The position numbers are program-made. A DNA stretch of 61,183 bases, counting the filler, from Candidatus Woesearchaeota archaeon (GTDB lineage Archaea > Nanobdellota > Nanobdellia > Woesearchaeales > DATGWN01), in assembly GCA_047603125.1 (NCBI GenBank). It is 8 parts of 8 records of this genome, joined end to end, with 100 filler letters (N's around TTAATTAATTAA, not from the genome) between each part and the next. Parts side by side here need not be neighbours in the genome. Positions count along the whole stretch, not along the records: positions 33,215 to 40,687 come from JBLKOU010000051.1; positions 40,788 to 47,814 come from JBLKOU010000052.1; 6 more parts are not named here. One strand, written 5' to 3'. How positions within the stretch are numbered: the stretch's first letter is position 1; the number at the start of each line of letters is the position of its first letter. Positions 36,001 to 42,000 of this stretch are shown here, one piece after another.

Positions 36001-39000
36001 CCATCAAAACCTGCAATCCAAAAACCCAAACCAAGTAATAACCCCTGCAACACCGCAATTGTTCCGCTACTAATAATGAGTGCATTTGTCACCGTTGCAA
36101 ATTTTTCAAGTAATTTTTGAGAATTTACTTTTGAAAACGGGACAAATTCAATAAAAAACTGTCGTAATGATTTTTGATTTCCTAACAAATAATATAAGAG
36201 AAAATACATAATGGTTATATTCAATAACAATTTTGTTGCGTTGCCAACAATATTTAAGAGTTGCTGTTGTATGTAAACAGCCATATTTGCAAGAATAGAT
36301 TCTGCTTCTTGAGTGAGATTAAACTCTGCTAACAATTCAACAAACCCTTCGAGCATATTAAAAATAACTTCGCGCTTTTCTAAGACAGTAAACGCCTGAT
36401 TTGCTGCAATCGTTCCAATGGTAATTAGTGGAAGTAAAATAATGAGTGCAGAAAGAACCATAATAACCGCTGCACTTGCAGCGCTATTCCATTTTCTTTT
36501 GCGAACCAGATAATTATATGGACCCTTTGTTAAAACAAAAAGAATTAATGCTGAAAAAATCGCAGTCAAAAAGTCGCTCATCGCATATAAAACAAACGCG
36601 GTCAATACGACAATTATTACTGTTGCTATTTTTTTTCTATGTGCATGCGTGTGCATATGTGCTACTGATAAGTTTTCCTTTAAATAATGTTTGGAAGATT
36701 AAAACGTGCTCAATCCACTCCATTCTTGGAATCGATAAAGCCAATACAAAAACAAACGTGAATCCTCATATGCCTCATATTCAAGAGTAAATGGATAAAT
36801 TGTGAGAAAATAGTGCTCAACGTCTCGTGAAATCGCACTATCTATCGGCGCTAAAATACGCACATTTGTTTCAAGATTAAAGTCGCCAATATTTCTTCTT
36901 GTAAAATTTGCAGAACCGCCATGTATAATAACAACGTCATTTGTGCGAATAACCAGCATTTTACTATGAAACTGCTCACCCTGTGTATCATACCAGCGAA
37001 CCTTGATATTTTCACTATAATTTTGCAATTCATGTGCTACTTGTCTATTTGGAACACCATTTTTTTCTCGGCCAAATGCATCTTTACTTGGATCTAACAC
37101 AATAGTAACAAGAACCCCCCTATCTGCAGCTCGCTTGAGTGCACGAACAATATGTCTATCTGAAAAATAAAACATCGCCATATTAATTCTGTCTCCTGCA
37201 ACCGTTGCGTCTATATCAAAAACTAAGGATTCTCTAATTTTTCCCTCTGTGAGAAGTTGCACACCAATCTCACCTTGTGTTTGTGTTGGCGAGGGTATTT
37301 CAATGTCTATTGGTGCAATTGCAGCCTCTGTTTTTAGCACATGGTAGGCAAACGCATCACTTTTTATCTGAAAGCCAATATTTGAGTGTAAACTACTTGG
37401 ATTATGTGGATTTGCAGAAAGAATAAATGAAGTATAGGTGTCTTGATAATCCATCACTGCAACTTTACGATGGTTTGCTTGAAAGTTTAATAGCGAGAGA
37501 AACGACCTTGCAGTAACTTTTTGATCAGGATCGCCAAAAGGATGCGAAATCCACCCCGAACCTTGTTTTGGAATCCATTGCAAGAAAGGATAATAGAGTG
37601 TGCTCCAGAGTAAATTACTTGGACGCAGTTGACTATGAACCGTAAAATAAACCTGTACATCTTGCTCAATAGCTTGATCGATAAGGGGCATAGAATGCGA
37701 ATGGTAAAACGTATTAAGTGGATCAGTTATAAGAATAGTCGTAGGTGGCCCGTCTTTTAAGTGAGCAAATAGCTGCTGGGTTACTGGAAGATAATCCGGA
37801 TTGGGATCATAATTTGTACTAAGTAAAAACATATCTGTAAGTAAAAATTGCTCCGATGTATTCATATATGTGAATAATGTCTGAAAAATCTCATGATCCA
37901 TTGTTTGATTATGGGTGATATCTGATAAAAACCGTATTTGAGAATCATTGACATAGATGGCAGGACTTTGATAGGAAACATTTTCTGCAAGCGGCTGAAA
38001 AGCCAAAAAACAGGCATGCAAAATAAGTAAGCTTACTATTGTCCAAAACCACGGGAATTTATTCATAGATTAATCTTTAATTGAGAAACTTTTTAAAGTG
38101 TTTGGTTTGTCACACACGTATGCCGTCGTCGCATACGCGCAGATGTCTCTCATCTTCGGTCGCGCCGTCGTCATTCATTAGCATTTATGCCGTCGTCGCA
38201 TAATCAATGGCAACCTTCAAAAAGGATTGAACATTTACTACCATTCGCAAACCGCTCATGGCGTGGTTTGTTTTCATACATTAAATTTATGCCGTCGTCG
38301 CATAATCAATGGCAACCTTCAAAAAGGATTGAACATTTACTACCATTCGCAAACTGCTCATGGCGTGGTTTGTTTTCATACATTAAATTTATGCCGTCGT
38401 CGCATAATCTGGTATTGCGCCGGTCTTGAAAATCGTGAAGTACCTTCACGTGTGCTTTATTTGGCACAATCAAGCAAACCGGTCCCTTAGGGATTCCCGG
38501 TTCAAATCCGGGCGGCGGCGTTTCTTTCACTGATGTAGTAAGCGCGGGTCGTAGAAACCTTAAGAAAAAACATCATTTGAACGTACAACAAAAAGTACGT
38601 CACTGATAGTAACGCCGTAGCCCGCAGTTTACGTCAGTGACATACTTTCACAGAAATTATTGCCAAGCTTTTTAAAAGTAAACTTTTTTAAATATTCGCT
38701 TCAATGACGAAGTATGACTTGAAATGGTTTTTTACGAAGCAAAAAAATCCCGAAGAGTAAAATTCACATTCCTAATAAATTCGATAGTAAGGAATGGGTG
38801 TGTTCGTAACACTGGGAGTTCCGTTCATTGAAAGCGAACGGAGTGAACCATCAAGAATAAGAAGTAAGGGTGAAAAAATGAGTGTTGACGATTTGACAAG
38901 AAATAAGTTCATAAAATCTGTAGAAGAAAAAATTCGAACACAAGATGTTCAATTTAGTATTCTAAAATTAATCTATCTTATTGATTTAGGATTCAATAAA

Positions 39001-42000
39001 GGAAAAACTCATAATGCCTTATTTGCTTTTTTTGACACCTATTTTCCAACCATCCTTTTCGAATCTCAAAACATTGATAAATTAAAAAAAATTATGATTG
39101 AGACTAAAGGAGAATATGACTTCCTAATAAAAAAAACGTCATACTCTTTGGATTTAGGAATAAAAAAAAAGTATTATTATAATGAAATAAGTTCGCTTGT
39201 TCTATTAATGCTCGAAAATAAAAAAAATAAAAAAATATTAGCTGAAATAAATACAATGGAAAAAGAATTATTACATATTATTGCCCCTAACTTAAATATT
39301 CTTTTACCTAACGAAGTTTTAATTAAACTATTGATCCATACAACTGGTCTAAAAAGACTATCGCAACTTACGGGTTCGAAAATACAAGTGTTAGGTGCTG
39401 AAAAAGCACTACATAAACACAAAAAAGGTAAATCCACATCCCCAAAATACGGTTATATATATGAAGTTAACTTTATTAAAAAGACCAAATCTGGAAAATT
39501 AGCAAGATATTTTGCAAACAAATTGTCAATTGCTGCTAAAATCGACTACTTTTATAAAAACATTAATAAAGATTTTATAGATACTATTTATTCAAGCCCA
39601 ATGATGAGTGATTCGACATCGCCTGAGGGCAATTTATATTAAAATGGAAAAAATATCTGAAGGAATTTATAGAAAAGATGGAAAGATATATACTATCAAT
39701 AACACAGACAAATATAAATATTATGATGAGAACGTATTAATTCATCTAAATAATCGTTATCGTCAATGGAACCCATACAAAAGCAAAGTTGGTGCTTCAA
39801 TAAAAAAAAAATTGAAAGAAATCCCTATTTCAAGAGAGAGTGTAATTTTATATCTTGGTTCATCCAGTGGGACAACAGTTAGCCATATAAGTGATATATT
39901 AACAAACGGAAAAATATTTGCAGTTGATTCTTCAAAAGAGATGATGAAAAAATTCATGAAGTTAGTTCATAACAGAAAAAATATCTTTCCCATATTAGAA
40001 AGTGCAAGAAATTATAAAAAATACAATATTCCCTCAGACACCTGCATTGACTTAATTGTCCAGGATGTTGCTTGTGTTGATCAAGTTAATATTTTAATTA
40101 ATAATTCTGACTATTATTTAAAATCAAACGGAAAGGTTTTAATCGCAATTAAAACACAAAGTATTGATTCCATAAAAAAACCAGGCATTGTTGTAGAAGA
40201 ACAAAAAGAAATATTAAAAGGCAAATTTAAAATATTACAAACATTAAATCTGGAACCATTCGAAAAAAACCACTGGCTATTATTCATGGAAAAAAAAGAA
40301 TGATGTAAGGGCAATTTCCCTCATTTTTTAGTCTAATCAAAAACTTTCCAAAAACAAAGAAGAACATTTATAAATAACCTCGCATTGAAACTATTTGTGA
40401 GTGATAAATACGTCGGCGTCGGTGGAGAACTTCATGATAGCAATGTAGCTGTTCTAGATGAATCAGGAAATATAGTTTTAGCAATAAATGAAGAACGGTT
40501 AACAAGGACAAAAAAAGAAGGAAGATTTCCATTTTGTGGAATTAAAGCTACAAAATATCATGACGCAAAAGTTGTGATTGGTGCAAATTCAATAGATGAA
40601 GCAGTTTCTCAAGTGATTTTAAACATTCAGAAGTTGGCTACTCCCCTACATGAATGTAGGGGCATCTACGCCAACTTAAATTAACTTNNNNNNNNNNNNN
40701 NNNNNNNNNNNNNNNNNNNNNNNNNNNNNNNTTAATTAATTAANNNNNNNNNNNNNNNNNNNNNNNNNNNNNNNNNNNNNNNNNNNNATGGTCGGCTTCG
40801 GTTCGAATTATTCCTTGCTTGTTAATGATACGGCGGTAACGGCACGACAGCTTCTTTGTATCGGCGATGATTGTCGGGATGAATGGCCAATAGACGTAAC
40901 AGATACGGGCGCAGTCTTTGGTGATGGTACTGCTGATTTTATTCCTTTATGGATTGAAGAGTCTATTCTTGGAGACTCCATCATGTATCAAGGAAGTGGG
41001 ATTATCGGTGTTATCGGAGATTTGGAATTTACAGGAACATTACAAAACGGTTCGGTTCCTTGGGCTCGTTTGATTGATCATCCATCCATTATTGCTGGAA
41101 CTGGGTTGACTGGTGGTGGTGATTTGAGCGAAAGCCGCACTTTAGATTTAACTGATACTGGTGTTCTTTCTGGTTCGTATGGTGGCGAAATTGTTATTCC
41201 TGTGTTTACTGTTGATGCACAAGGTCGCTTGACTTTTGTAACAAATCAAACGATTCGACCTGCAACATTAACACAGACAGGTATTGTGCAACTAGAAAAT
41301 GCAACGGATTCTGATTCAGTAACAACTGCCGCAACACCCGCGTCTGTTCGTGCGGCATATGATCTTGCTGCAAGCAAAACGTCTCCAGGAACATGTTCGT
41401 CAGGGTTTGCCGTTCAAAATACAACGACGGGTGGGGTTGAGTGTGTTGCGATACCACCTGCGGTTGATTTAGATGACTATTACAATAAAACAGAAGTTGA
41501 TGACACGTTTGTTCCCTACGTTGGTGCAACACAAGATGTGAACTTAGGTGAGCAGAGTTTGTTTGTTAATGGCAGTGTGGGGATCGGTACAATTACTCCG
41601 TCTTATCCTCTTCATATACTTGGCAATTTTGGTTTTTCTGGCACATTGCAAGAAGGAATTATACCTTGGATCCGATTAACGGATTATCCTACAATTACTG
41701 CTGGTGTGGGTTTGACTGGTGGCGGTGATTTAAGTGAGAATCGCACTTTTGATTTAACTGATACGGATGTGAGCGCAGGATCCTATGGTGGTGATATTGT
41801 CATCCCTACGTTTGTGGTTGATGCGCAAGGTCGCTTGACTTTTGTAACAAATCAGACGATTCGTCAATCAACTTTATCAGAGACTGGGATAGTACAACTA
41901 GAAAATGCAACGGATTCTGATTCAGTAACAACTGCCGCAACACCCGCGTCTGTTCGTGCGGCATATGATCTTGCTGCAAGCAAAACGTCTCCAGGAACAT

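Follow-up and report, generated by a model that had tools for sequence, protein, structure and literature searches.

A probable horizontally transferred Nop5-fibrillarin cassette with a putative box C/D guide RNA inside its nop5 gene in a woesearchaeal genome

Known box C/D particles and related guide systems

Box C/D methylation is regarded as a single-copy housekeeping function that works with interchangeable two-guide RNAs, and fibrillarin duplicates are described for 3 of the 148 archaea covered in PMC7608942. We analysed a window, the whole stretch of DNA examined here (61,183 nt), from a Woesearchaeota genome. The host is a small lake archaeon. The cassette in this window resembles box C/D sRNPs of archaea (Nop5, fibrillarin, L7Ae and a bipartite sRNA) in its Nop domain, coiled coil, fibrillarin, nop5-fib gene order, C and D boxes and D+5 targeting, and in that an L7Ae gene was found in both genomes that carry it. 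Unlike the archaeal sRNP, however, the cassette is an extra copy in a separate clade, is patchily distributed, and has one N-terminal Nop5 helix. In contrast to a canonical sRNA, its guide lies inside the nop5 frame, lacks C′/D′ and apparently has one target.

Half-mer or symmetric two-strand C/D RNPs (3nmu, 3id5, 3pla) are engineered with synthetic RNAs, whereas the cassette would be a natural gene. A particle of one repeated C-guide-D strand was crystallised in an active form, as described in PMC6239191. C/D-type motifs in the machinery's own transcripts, as L7Ae-bound k-turns or sRNA genes overlapping ORF 3′ ends, are described in PMC5539422, PMC4247193 and PMC7994747. The cassette motif is of this kind, but its place is the nop5-fib junction, and its loop forms a guide that is complementary to rRNA and is conserved across reading frames. 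Cfr, which is reported to methylate A2503 (PMC13001441), and RluC (pseudouridine 2504) act on the nucleotide adjacent to, or the same as, the target predicted here. Both are PTC-modifying resistance enzymes, mobile or intrinsic, and differ from the cassette in being protein-only and in using other chemistry.

Eukaryotic Nop56/Nop58, IS110 and TIGR-Tas share with the cassette a Nop domain that goes with a C/D-like RNA. The hallmarks of IS110 and TIGR-Tas are a nuclease or recombinase domain and a guide array or element ends. Both are described as mobile and as carrying their own guides (PMC11213020; PMC12045711). The cassette differs in its fibrillarin partner and its lack of a guide array, and neither Pfam nor the structural model gave a nuclease or recombinase domain at the locus. 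It differs from Nop56/Nop58 in showing no sign of a fixed paralog pair.

A second Nop5-fibrillarin pair

A survey of the whole genome had reported the canonical Nop5-fibrillarin pair on contig C50 and a second, adjacent pair in the window. We found the canonical pair as described (Nop5 of 327 aa, fibrillarin of 223 aa), and the second pair is real, with both ORFs intact (PF01798 and PF01269 matches) and on host DNA. The two Nop5s are 46% identical across 90 aa, and the two fibrillarins 34% across 218 aa. The multi-copy MITE that the survey placed on the contig was also recovered. The features are as follows.

34944-35095, strand not given: multi-copy MITE
38116..38409, + strand: repeats upstream of the tRNA, with the 23-nt tRNA 5′ end in four copies and a 102-nt tandem unit
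38393..38520, + strand: intron-containing tRNA, read as tRNA-Ser(UGA); Rfam tRNA 42 bits
38878..39642, + strand: cassette-type Nop5, 254 aa; Pfam Nop; GC 0.267
39596..39630, + strand: putative single-motif box C/D guide RNA, read from sequence, motif, stem and 9-bp 23S pairing
39644..40303, + strand: fibrillarin-like 2′-O-methyltransferase, 219 aa; Pfam 214 bits; GC 0.273
40385..40611, + strand: NodU/CmcH-type carbamoyltransferase gene, 5′ part; Pfam Carbam_trans_N
40612..40687, no strand: 76-nt element end with palindrome, at the contig end; blastn to C43

The Nop5 start codon was uncertain as given in the survey; ATG 38878 is most likely, yielding 254 aa as in the database copy. An SD-like GGGTGA (38868-38873, compared with the host 16S tail) precedes this ATG, and the relatives P0002-P0004 start at the same place. 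The protein matches Pfam Nop (92 bits, cut-off 25.4) through a C-terminal Nop domain with a GAEK motif (GAEKA in the alignment), while the NCBIfam aNOP56 cut-off of 452 is reached neither by this protein (83.7) nor by the canonical copy (205). The survey had limited the match to the Nop domain. The profile aligns positions 15-231 to residues 128-351 of the solved Nop5 3nvm, so the match covers the coiled coil as well, a domain also supported by the model helices and by Foldseek hits, the top one being the N-terminally truncated Nop5 3nvi. The AlphaFold model is all-helical (mean pLDDT 89.9, below 50 at residues 245-250) and gives an architecture of one N-terminal helix, coiled coil and Nop domain. 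A complete N-terminal (RuvC-like) fibrillarin-binding domain is absent: the protein begins about 110-140 columns into the Nop5 alignment and the model has no strands. Several canonical DPANN Nop5s begin at the same place, and several single-copy Nop5s in the order likewise have no N-terminal domain. The short length stressed by the survey is not distinctive, since many single-copy Nop5 open frames of the order have about 240-260 aa.

The fibrillarin (219 aa; database copy P0079) begins with the ATG at 39644 and scores 214 bits on PF01269 and, full-length, 224 bits on NF003276 (cut-off 113). Its alignment keeps the SAM-loop and the K, D, K and H columns, which we take to be the catalytic residues. 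The predicted Nop5-fibrillarin complex scored 0.91, compared with 0.01 for the best of three controls, on a scale whose mark was reached by 116 of 157 solved pairs and 2 of 215 mismatched pairs, although similar complexes are already solved and the pass may reflect structures that the predictor had learnt. At least 95% of contacts agreed between runs, partner pLDDT was at least 86, and the interface on Nop5 comprises residues 4-23, 53-61 and 89-93, so the retained N-terminal helix is predicted to hold fibrillarin. Relative to the cassette at L119, dN/dS is 0.285 for Nop5 and 0.108 for fibrillarin, values indicating that both are under purifying selection. Together with the complex prediction, this agrees with the survey's proposal of a second box C/D core with its own scaffold, which is probably functional.

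A putative embedded box C/D RNA and its predicted target

The final 42 nt of the Nop5 frame contain a putative 35-nt box C/D RNA, through which the last ~14 codons are read. It consists of a 5′ stem (39596-39599), C box (39601-39607), 15-nt guide (39608-39622), D box (39623-39626) and 3′ stem (39627-39630), and thus has the C box, D box and terminal stem of a box C/D sRNA. A C′/D′ half and second guide are absent, and the locus gave no bipartite match and no Rfam sRNA match. The guide core and D box are identical in all three cassette loci seen as DNA, namely this genome (G000), L119 and G307, even though the G307 Nop5 is only 37% identical. With a spacer of 15 nt in G000 and one of 14 nt in G307, the C box falls in different reading frames. 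Judging from the peptide, P0189, which ends MMSNDIA-stop, has the same boxes and core in yet another frame, and P0003 and P0004 keep a PMM..STSPEG tail; the protein tails of four family members, P0190, P0191, P0192 and P0342, bear no trace of the motif. In none of 116 other Nop5 loci does the core occur 120 nt or less from the stop, and the sequence downstream of the guide is not conserved among carriers. The stem is kept at the three loci with one compensatory G-C to U-A change, a covariation that, with three sequences only, was matched by 108-166 of 500 shuffles. Nor is the 44-nt identical run over the guide between G000 and L119 exceptional, as 6 of the 10 identical runs of at least 30 nt, itself included, equal or exceed that length.

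The same core also precedes a D-type box in stand-alone archaeal C/D sRNAs, seen at metagenome loci such as L086, L096, L104 and L158, and so points to the same predicted nucleotide. Unlike the cassette guide, these are two-guide RNAs between genes, and the flanks fetched for their loci contain no Nop5 or fibrillarin match. Among 92 pattern matches in JGI metagenomes, 19 extend into a second C′..D half (shuffled control: mean 0.025, maximum 2), the second guide of several fits the A-loop, and L096 reaches 44.5 bits with Rfam snoPyro_CD (gathering 45). The core is therefore one that stand-alone sRNAs really use.

By the D+5 rule, the predicted target is host 23S position C7:13491, equivalent to E. 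coli U2504 (numbered on rrlB) in the peptidyl transferase centre. The guide forms nine contiguous pairs there (eight Watson-Crick and one G-U), where canonical guide-rRNA complementarity next to the D box is about 10 bp. Taken alone, a 9-bp rRNA or tRNA match is at chance level in this genome (40 of 293 motifs, compared with 31-51 for shuffled targets); the U2504 pairing is supported by conservation of the guide core. No 23S rRNA is assembled in G307. The guide appears to be aimed at one nucleotide, and the specialised role suggested by the survey looks plausible for a pair that carries its own guide.

Origin, alternatives and meaning

Within the order, 2 of 401 genomes, one in each of two families, have the cassette as an additional copy; among phylum genomes the count is 2 of 401. 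Both carriers also hold the canonical pair, and in no genome searched is the cassette family the sole Nop5. Two Nop matches were found in none of the nine other genomes of the host family, and the cassette is in 1 of 18 genomes of the other carrier's family. The 254-aa query retrieved three proteins at E<=1e-35 (87%, 83% and 47%), one more than the survey had counted, and a profile search gave a family of at least seven clusters at 50% identity. Cassette GC is 27%, compared with 36% for the genome's genes and within the lowest 1% of them; codon adaptation is unremarkable, at the 35th and 64th percentile. The cassette Nop5 forms its own clade (SH-aLRT 99), as does the fibrillarin (100/98), apart from the canonical fibrillarins of both hosts (clade 99/98).

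Three different left flanks were seen: a tRNA, a small ribbon-helix-helix-like gene (weak Pfam match, E 0.005) and a metal-binding gene that adjoins its host's single rpoE. The tRNA has a long variable arm and a UGA anticodon. ARAGORN with introns put its intron elsewhere and called it Ala, and the assembly holds no second Ser(UGA) tRNA gene. The cassette starts ~360 nt downstream of this tRNA, a possible insertion site. On the other side, the contig (7.5 kb) ends 380 nt past fibrillarin. The carbamoyltransferase gene there is interrupted by a repeat at the contig end, and its remainder is absent from the assembly; at L119, an ORF of at least 396 aa follows the same cassette (81% identity over 79 aa). 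The interrupting element end is 100% identical over 76 nt to C43:34535-34610 and presumably resembles an IS200/IS605 end. The G307 cassette neighbours a PLP decarboxylase and an adenylate-forming enzyme. No integrase or transposase is on the 7.5-kb contig, no att repeats were found flanking the cassette (nearby repeats are only tRNA-linked), and no viral copy, phage match or close plasmid match was found. Given the patchy occurrence, low GC, separate clades and differing left flanks, the cassette is best read as a transferred module of a separate, rare clade.

The main rival to a guide is a cis-acting mRNA K-turn by which L7Ae or Nop5-L7Ae throttles fibrillarin translation, the proteins being a transferred spare set that uses the cell's guides. 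L7Ae binding to a k-turn in the S. acidocaldarius nop5-fibrillarin mRNA (PMC5539422) and L7Ae sites noted in the T. kodakarensis aNOP56 transcript (PMC4247193) speak for this, as do the missing C′/D′ half and the D box lying 17 nt (G000) or 12 nt (G307) before the fibrillarin ATG. The k-turn described in PMC5539422, however, is in the first 125 nt of the mRNA rather than at the junction, and a purely regulatory K-turn needs no fixed loop, whereas this core does not vary between carriers or frames and is the same as the guide in stand-alone sRNAs; we consider the idea quite unlikely. Alternatively, guide and enzyme could be real and co-transferred with no special role, as a hitch-hiking operon fragment with half an adjacent sRNA that is decaying, or kept for a general assembly benefit, or aimed at another 23S site. 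Most archaeal C/D sRNA genes described in PMC7994747 overlap ORF ends, the nearest fibrillarins are Iainarchaeota-like (92/85, not firm), a group whose listed Nop5 apparently also has no N-terminal domain, and the neighbouring carbamoyltransferase is broken here. The G000 guide duplex is also lower in energy at another 23S site (-19.1 kcal/mol, compared with -14.6 at U2504). That site, however, needs a G-U pair beside the target, breaks after seven pairs, uses guide positions that differ in G307, and itself falls within a self-complementary stretch. The lack of any genome with the family as sole Nop5, the canonical pair in both carriers, and the absence of matches both in 121 genomes from the phylum to which an Iainarchaeum record belongs and in 121 from that of an Aenigmatarchaeota record (sets with no positive control inside) make this reading unlikely as well. 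The survey had itself allowed for transfer with no separate role; transfer does fit better, but the embedded guide argues against the second half of that statement.

An assembly or binning artefact, with a low-GC stretch from another organism, would explain why GC falls to 27% near a contig end beside a tandem repeat, why, among the Logan contig pieces listed, none crosses the repeat or covers the entire stretch, and why close relatives are on short contigs, one binned as 'bacterium'. It is very unlikely, since Logan contigs without differences span the tRNA to Nop5 (38380-39053) and the Nop5-fibrillarin junction (39256-39773), although the best-matching run may be the source sample itself. 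Moreover, without this tRNA the host set would have a gap, and relatives of the upstream repeats precede the other two tRNA-Ser genes (C19, C26), which ties the locus to the host. The G307 cassette lies ~1 kb from its genome's only rpoE, 66-70% identical to that of congeners, and estimated contamination is 0.98%. The survey drew a parallel with the eukaryotic Nop56/Nop58 split, which would here mean a Nop5 duplication specific to the lineage that yields an asymmetric Nop5/Nop5′ heterodimer. Two Nop5s and two fibrillarins in one genome fit this, and a clade of cassette and order-level canonical fibrillarins is not rejected (p-AU 0.27), a value compatible with an ancient duplication within the order and subsequent transfer or numerous losses. 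We find the heterodimer highly improbable, as the pair is not kept in relatives (two families, a single sampled genome each), a clade of window and host fibrillarin is rejected (p-AU 0.004, under a constraint that breaks up the cassette clade as well), GC falls in the lowest 1% of the genome's genes, and the cassette, unlike the eukaryotic split, brings its own fibrillarin.

We favor, as the probable explanation, a horizontally transferred three-part RNA-guided methylation module of a reduced Nop5, a fibrillarin and a miniature guide inside the Nop5 3′ end. The three parts stand in this order, are conserved together and have a separate ancestry. We hypothesize that the C and D boxes of the bicistronic transcript fold a K-turn that host L7Ae would bind, and that the 35-nt RNA would be protected and trimmed out, like archaeal sRNAs overlapping gene ends. 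A single-motif C/D particle is reported to be active in vitro but not site-specific (PMC1635284), which calls for a further step; we infer that two RNA copies would pair C-to-D in trans on a Nop5 homodimer, forming a symmetric particle with two guides. Fibrillarin, kept in place by the remaining N-terminal helix, would then methylate the ribose of 23S U2504 during ribosome assembly, adding one PTC modification for which a guide of this kind is not seen in most relatives. Since the D box lies 12-17 nt ahead of the fibrillarin start, this K-turn may in addition act back on fibrillarin translation.

A bolder version of this module, rather unlikely in our view, is a mobile, self-programmed resistance module of 1.4 kb, the RNA-guided counterpart of Cfr, in which a natural single-motif guide acting as a homodimer would methylate U2504 and shield the PTC from inhibitors, with the module travelling beside small-molecule biosynthesis genes (the carbamoyltransferase in G000 and L119, the PLP decarboxylase and adenylate-forming enzyme in G307). 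Pseudouridine 2504 is reported to lower E. coli sensitivity to tiamulin, linezolid and clindamycin (PMC13602947), and U2504C is listed as a cause of linezolid and chloramphenicol resistance (10.1101/2024.11.12.623245); the literature searched yielded no effect of a 2′-O-methyl at 2504, and we offer a resistance role only as a hypothesis.

A transferable unit of enzyme, scaffold and program would show one rRNA modification spreading as a trait. The module would let the mono- versus di-RNP and half-mer questions be tested in a natural system, posing whether an RNA with a single C/D motif can guide accurately as a dimer, and as modelled it would define the smallest Nop5-fibrillarin interface. Because the predicted target is tied to inhibitor sensitivity in other microbes, the role of single archaeal 2′-O-methyls would become open to a direct test that needs three small proteins plus a 35-nt RNA.

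Gene pair and genomic setting

The survey's finding was a second Nop5-fibrillarin pair in addition to the canonical operon on contig C50, and both pairs are indeed present, the ORFs of the second being intact. The second pair, which we call the cassette, encodes a Nop-domain protein and a fibrillarin in two adjoining intact ORFs on contig C32 (window 33215-40687), with likely starts at ATG 38878 for Nop5 (254 aa) and ATG 39644 for fibrillarin (219 aa). Identity to the products of the canonical C50 nop5-fib operon is low, at 46% over 90 aa for Nop5 and 34% over 218 aa for fibrillarin. 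The GC content of the pair is 27% against a gene mean of 36.5%, about the lowest 1% of 827 long ORFs, and its codon adaptation is ordinary. The cassette begins ~360 nt downstream of an intron-containing tRNA that we read as tRNA-Ser(UGA); ARAGORN calls the same tRNA Ala and positions the intron elsewhere. On the 3′ side lies the first quarter of a carbamoyltransferase gene, broken by a repeat at the contig end.

An assembly or binning artefact is an unlikely origin for the cassette in this genome because contigs span its junctions, the tRNA-linked repeats and the MITE of its contig recur in the genome, and a second carrier, G307, has a copy near rpoE. In Logan contigs from four runs, one piece links the tRNA to nop5 (38380-39053) and one spans the nop5-fib junction (39256-39773), each with zero differences; among the pieces listed, none extends over the entire stretch or bridges the tandem repeat that precedes the tRNA. 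The best-matching run may be the genome's own source sample, and Logan contig depth does not equal copy number, nor do these contigs inform on expression. Eight lake-water runs from two studies contain 45-85% of the sampled words; none of the runs listed is an RNA data set. The upstream repeat family recurs 5′ of the other two tRNA-Ser genes of the genome, and C32 carries the genome's MITE, as the survey had stated. In G307 the cassette sits ~1 kb from the only rpoE of that genome, a gene that shares 66-70% identity with its counterparts in 4 congeners. The host's canonical fibrillarin clusters in the tree with records titled Woesearchaeota or Nanoarchaeota, which points to a Woesearchaeales-like DPANN host.

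Several features of the surroundings were recorded in passing. All three tRNA-Ser genes found have upstream repeats (window 38116-38409; C19:150-480; C26:130-420), composed of tRNA 5′-end copies and a shared ~60-nt tandem unit that occurs in three copies on C19 and in two inside 102-nt units at window 38116-38409; Logan contigs form loops at these repeats. The MITE at window 34944-35095 is bounded by terminal inverted repeats of 15 nt, and dozens of related elements occur throughout the genome. In sequencing run X1, the stretch from guide to fibrillarin (39601-40265) also occurs as a second variant, with 44 differences and 2 gap letters. Single contigs in X1 and in run X4 depart from the window sequence, before 38726 and after 38758, respectively, which weakly suggests a left boundary or different flanks within the same lake.

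The cassette proteins belong to the Nop5 and fibrillarin families, but the Nop5 is without its N-terminal domain: in alignment, the cassette Nop5 starts at the last helix of that domain in canonical Nop5. Its predicted structure is all-helical (pLDDT 89.9), with a tail, translated from the guide RNA region, that is not confident, and Foldseek matches it best to a Nop5 truncated at the N terminus, in complex with L7Ae and C/D RNA. The fibrillarin scores above its curated cut-off. The predicted Nop5-fibrillarin complex scored 0.91 against 0.01 for the best of 3 controls, past a mark attained by 116 of 157 solved pairs and 2 of 215 mismatched pairs; at least 95% of contacts recur from run to run, the partner has a pLDDT of at least 86, and the predicted interface on Nop5 comprises residues 4-23, 53-61 and 89-93. 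Since like complexes have already been solved, this model shows a predicted likeness to them rather than binding. Compared with L119, a metagenome locus with the same cassette, both genes are under purifying selection (dN/dS 0.285 for Nop5, 0.108 for fibrillarin). An L7Ae gene lies elsewhere in the genome in both carriers, on C39 in the host.

Two observations concern related proteins. P0082, a cassette-type fibrillarin (83% identical), has a G to D change in its SAM-binding loop and is possibly inactive. Single-copy DPANN Nop5s (L181, L182, L183, L005, L041 and P0020) also start at the last N-terminal helix by their predicted starts, so that loss of the Nop5 RuvC-like domain seems recurrent in DPANN lineages.

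A putative guide RNA within the Nop5 gene

The 3′ end of the Nop5 gene contains a putative 35-nt box C/D RNA (39596-39630, + strand) with a single motif:

39601-39607, + strand: perfect C box, in the sequence at the end of the Nop5 frame
39623-39626, + strand: D box, 15 nt after the C box; a 4-bp stem closes the motif

The target nucleotide is read from the D box by the D+5 rule. Nine nucleotides adjoining the D box are complementary to the host 23S rRNA and would select the U at C7:13491, which is U2504 by E. coli rrlB numbering. Taken alone, the 9-bp match means nothing as evidence of a target: 40 of 293 loose C..D motifs of the genome have one, compared with 31-51 for shuffled targets. Requiring the 4-bp stem as well leaves 1 of the 293, the cassette guide, against 0-2 with shuffled targets. 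Only nine pairs form at the U2504 site; a second 23S site, near E. coli position 1280, has lower duplex energy with the host guide, though pairing there includes a wobble next to the target and is interrupted after the seventh pair. The 23S gene itself (C7:10286-13876) is ~600 nt longer than the model and has an AT-rich insert that resembles a group I intron carrying a broken homing endonuclease ORF.

The case for a guide is one of conservation. When JGI metagenomes were scanned with the motif pattern, 92 matches emerged, and in one of them, L119, the cassette recurs with 90% nucleotide identity; a looser pattern matched 4 times in 401 genomes of the class: in the host, in G307 and in two unrelated genes. 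Although the G307 Nop5 shares 37% identity with that of the host, an unbroken run of 18 nt from the core through the D box into the stem is the same in both; the G307 spacer is one base shorter and its stem has a compensatory change (covariation not significant with three sequences). The peptide encoded by the motif is kept in the related Nop5 proteins P0003 and P0004, and the C-terminus of P0189, MMSNDIA, would correspond, judging from the peptide, to a C box, a 13-nt spacer and a D box supplying the stop codon. No trace of the motif appears in the protein tails of four cassette family members. Among 116 other Nop5 loci (a few of them duplicates), including L197 from the unpublished genome G699, none has the guide core within 120 nt of the stop.

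The RNA at the cassette locus fails the bipartite test and therefore is not a canonical sRNA. The same U2504 guide appears to serve ordinary two-guide sRNAs elsewhere, because 19 of the 92 JGI matches extend into a second C′..D half (shuffled mean 0.025), several of these two-half loci carry an A-loop guide, and one scores 44.5 bits on the Rfam Pyrococcus C/D model, below the gathering threshold of 45. The cassette would thus hold half of a two-guide sRNA, closed by its own stem.

The apparently unannotated bipartite sRNAs with the U2504 guide form three groups: L086, L101, L104, L125, L158 and L164, which are intergenic, pair this guide with an A-loop guide and lie in loci whose gene content is archaeal; L092, L096, L134 and L151; and L085, L139, L165 and L173. 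In the host assembly, the sole clear bipartite candidate lies at C10:~900-950, upstream of an SRP54-like gene, and no convincing target was found for it. A genome-wide guide scan of the host performed no better than shuffled targets. We set aside a second stem-closed C..D motif on C57 (opposite strand of a DNA methyltransferase ORF, no rRNA match of at least 7 nt), a C-box-like sequence upstream of nop5 at 38704-38756 (no proper D box, missing from L119), and pattern matches in genomes G199 and G367 (unrelated coding regions).

Distribution and ancestry

The cassette is rare. In the order, a Nop5 match at E<=1e-12 is present in 355 of the 401 genomes searched; two such matches occur in 3 genomes, and the cassette family in 2 (the host and G307, of another family). 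Under stricter settings, 401 genomes from the phylum yielded the same 2 carriers, and one centred on G307 found only G307 among 400, largely the same genome draw; the three sets overlap and consist of incomplete MAGs, and the order tally includes twelve unpublished non-carriers (G699, G533, G555, G610, G647, G664, G492, G553, G636, G583, G666 and G552), which bear on no other result than this tally and, through L197, the negative Nop5 loci. Both carriers retain the canonical pair. Further family members came from profile searches: P0004, P0189-P0192 and P0342, almost all of them on short contigs. Two other DPANN phyla had no cassette match (0/121 and 0/121 genomes), and a named-genome scan with the Nop5 alignment returned nothing but canonical Nop5s among the best 80 of 85 relatives. 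A second Nop pair in genome G497 was rejected as a family member, as it scores like ordinary Nop5s and lacks a C/D motif. That pair (C100:2834-3816, L226) joins a Nop5 of just 142 aa, which lacks most of its coiled coil, to a 173-aa fibrillarin, with another Nop5 in the genome, and is possibly contamination or another reduced type.

The survey had likened the two pairs to the Nop56/Nop58 split of eukaryotes. We find that the cassette does not look like such a pair, as it occurs in 1 of 10 genomes of the host family and 1 of 18 of the G307 family and its proteins form their own clades. The nine cassette Nop5s tested are one clade (SH-aLRT 99) in a quick LG+G4 tree of 52 chosen rows, with the group picked by profile score and with tree position and backbone unsupported. 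For fibrillarin, a quick tree of 93 rows (35 near-redundant ids listed beforehand for dropping) was followed by a careful LG+G4 tree of 36 chosen rows. Cassette fibrillarins form one clade with the related proteins P0083 and P0086 (100/98), the canonical fibrillarins of both hosts fall in a separate one (99/98), and Iainarchaeota-like sequences are a weak sister of the former (92/85). The AU test rejects a clade of the window and host fibrillarins (p 0.004) and does not reject the cassette with all order-level canonical fibrillarins (p 0.27). 

Three different left flanks occur: the tRNA in the host, a 48-codon ribbon-helix-helix-like gene in L119 and a metal-binding gene in G307. The right flank is a carbamoyltransferase in the host and L119, and a regulator, a PLP decarboxylase and an adenylate-forming enzyme in G307. 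No integrase or att site was found near the cassette, and the 3′ end of the tRNA is repeated only in other tRNA genes. We rejected a viral origin, given that IMG/VR holds no Nop5, fibrillarin or guide-pattern match and phages none either; the plasmid search returned one match, an ordinary haloarchaeal one. A sigma-70 promoter scan, a model unsuited to archaea, was at chance level.

Elsewhere in the genome, C35:1554-7110 (L225) is an island of low GC, 23-28% for most of its genes, which include methyltransferases, a glycosyltransferase and a deacetylase-like gene. It has a full NodU-type carbamoyltransferase convergent with a KsgA/Erm-family rRNA adenine methyltransferase, the sole one found in the assembly (scoring 159 bits to ksgA and 141 to broad Erm, both below cut-off). 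Here, for the second time, a carbamoyltransferase adjoins a foreign gene for rRNA modification.

Proposed mechanism and role

We think it somewhat probable that the nop5-fib module methylates 23S U2504 by means of a trimmed guide RNA, a Nop5 dimer, L7Ae and fibrillarin, where we infer the steps beyond the gene anatomy. Transcription would yield one nop5-fib mRNA, in which L7Ae would fold the C/D K-turn, and the 35-nt RNA would be trimmed out, as has been proposed for ORF-overlapping sRNAs in archaea (PMC7994747, PMC6009581). Two RNA copies would then assemble on a Nop5 dimer, and fibrillarin would methylate U2504. The dimer step would be needed because a single-motif particle was active, yet not site-specific (PMC1635284); symmetric RNAs were used for the crystal structure of an active C/D RNP (PMC6239191). 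Judged by its sequences, the cassette would work like an archaeal box C/D RNP, differing in its missing Nop5 N-terminal domain and in an RNA that is not bipartite. It is neither a TIGR-Tas nor an IS110 system.

The main rival is that the C/D motif is a regulatory K-turn in the mRNA. L7Ae binds the nop5-fib mRNA in Sulfolobus (PMC5539422), and L7Ae sites have been noted in Thermococcus (PMC4247193). Regulation and guiding can coexist, and the unchanged core and D box in G307 and the use of the same guide in apparent two-guide sRNAs are consistent with the guide role. Guide-independent activity of Nop5-fibrillarin has been reported as well (PMC5558902).

Duplicated fibrillarins have been recorded in archaea, though seldom (3 of 148; PMC7608942). 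Our literature search, based on main texts with incomplete coverage, found no second nop5-fib pair with an embedded guide and no mobile C/D module. The string '2504' is absent from the main text of PMC4644070, whose supplementary guide tables may list a U2504 guide. In E. coli U2504 is pseudouridylated, which lowers sensitivity to PTC drugs (PMC13602947), and U2504C is among listed resistance changes (10.1101/2024.11.12.623245). Given these drug links and the biosynthetic-looking neighbor genes, we speculate that the module might protect the PTC of its host, a role that we consider doubtful.
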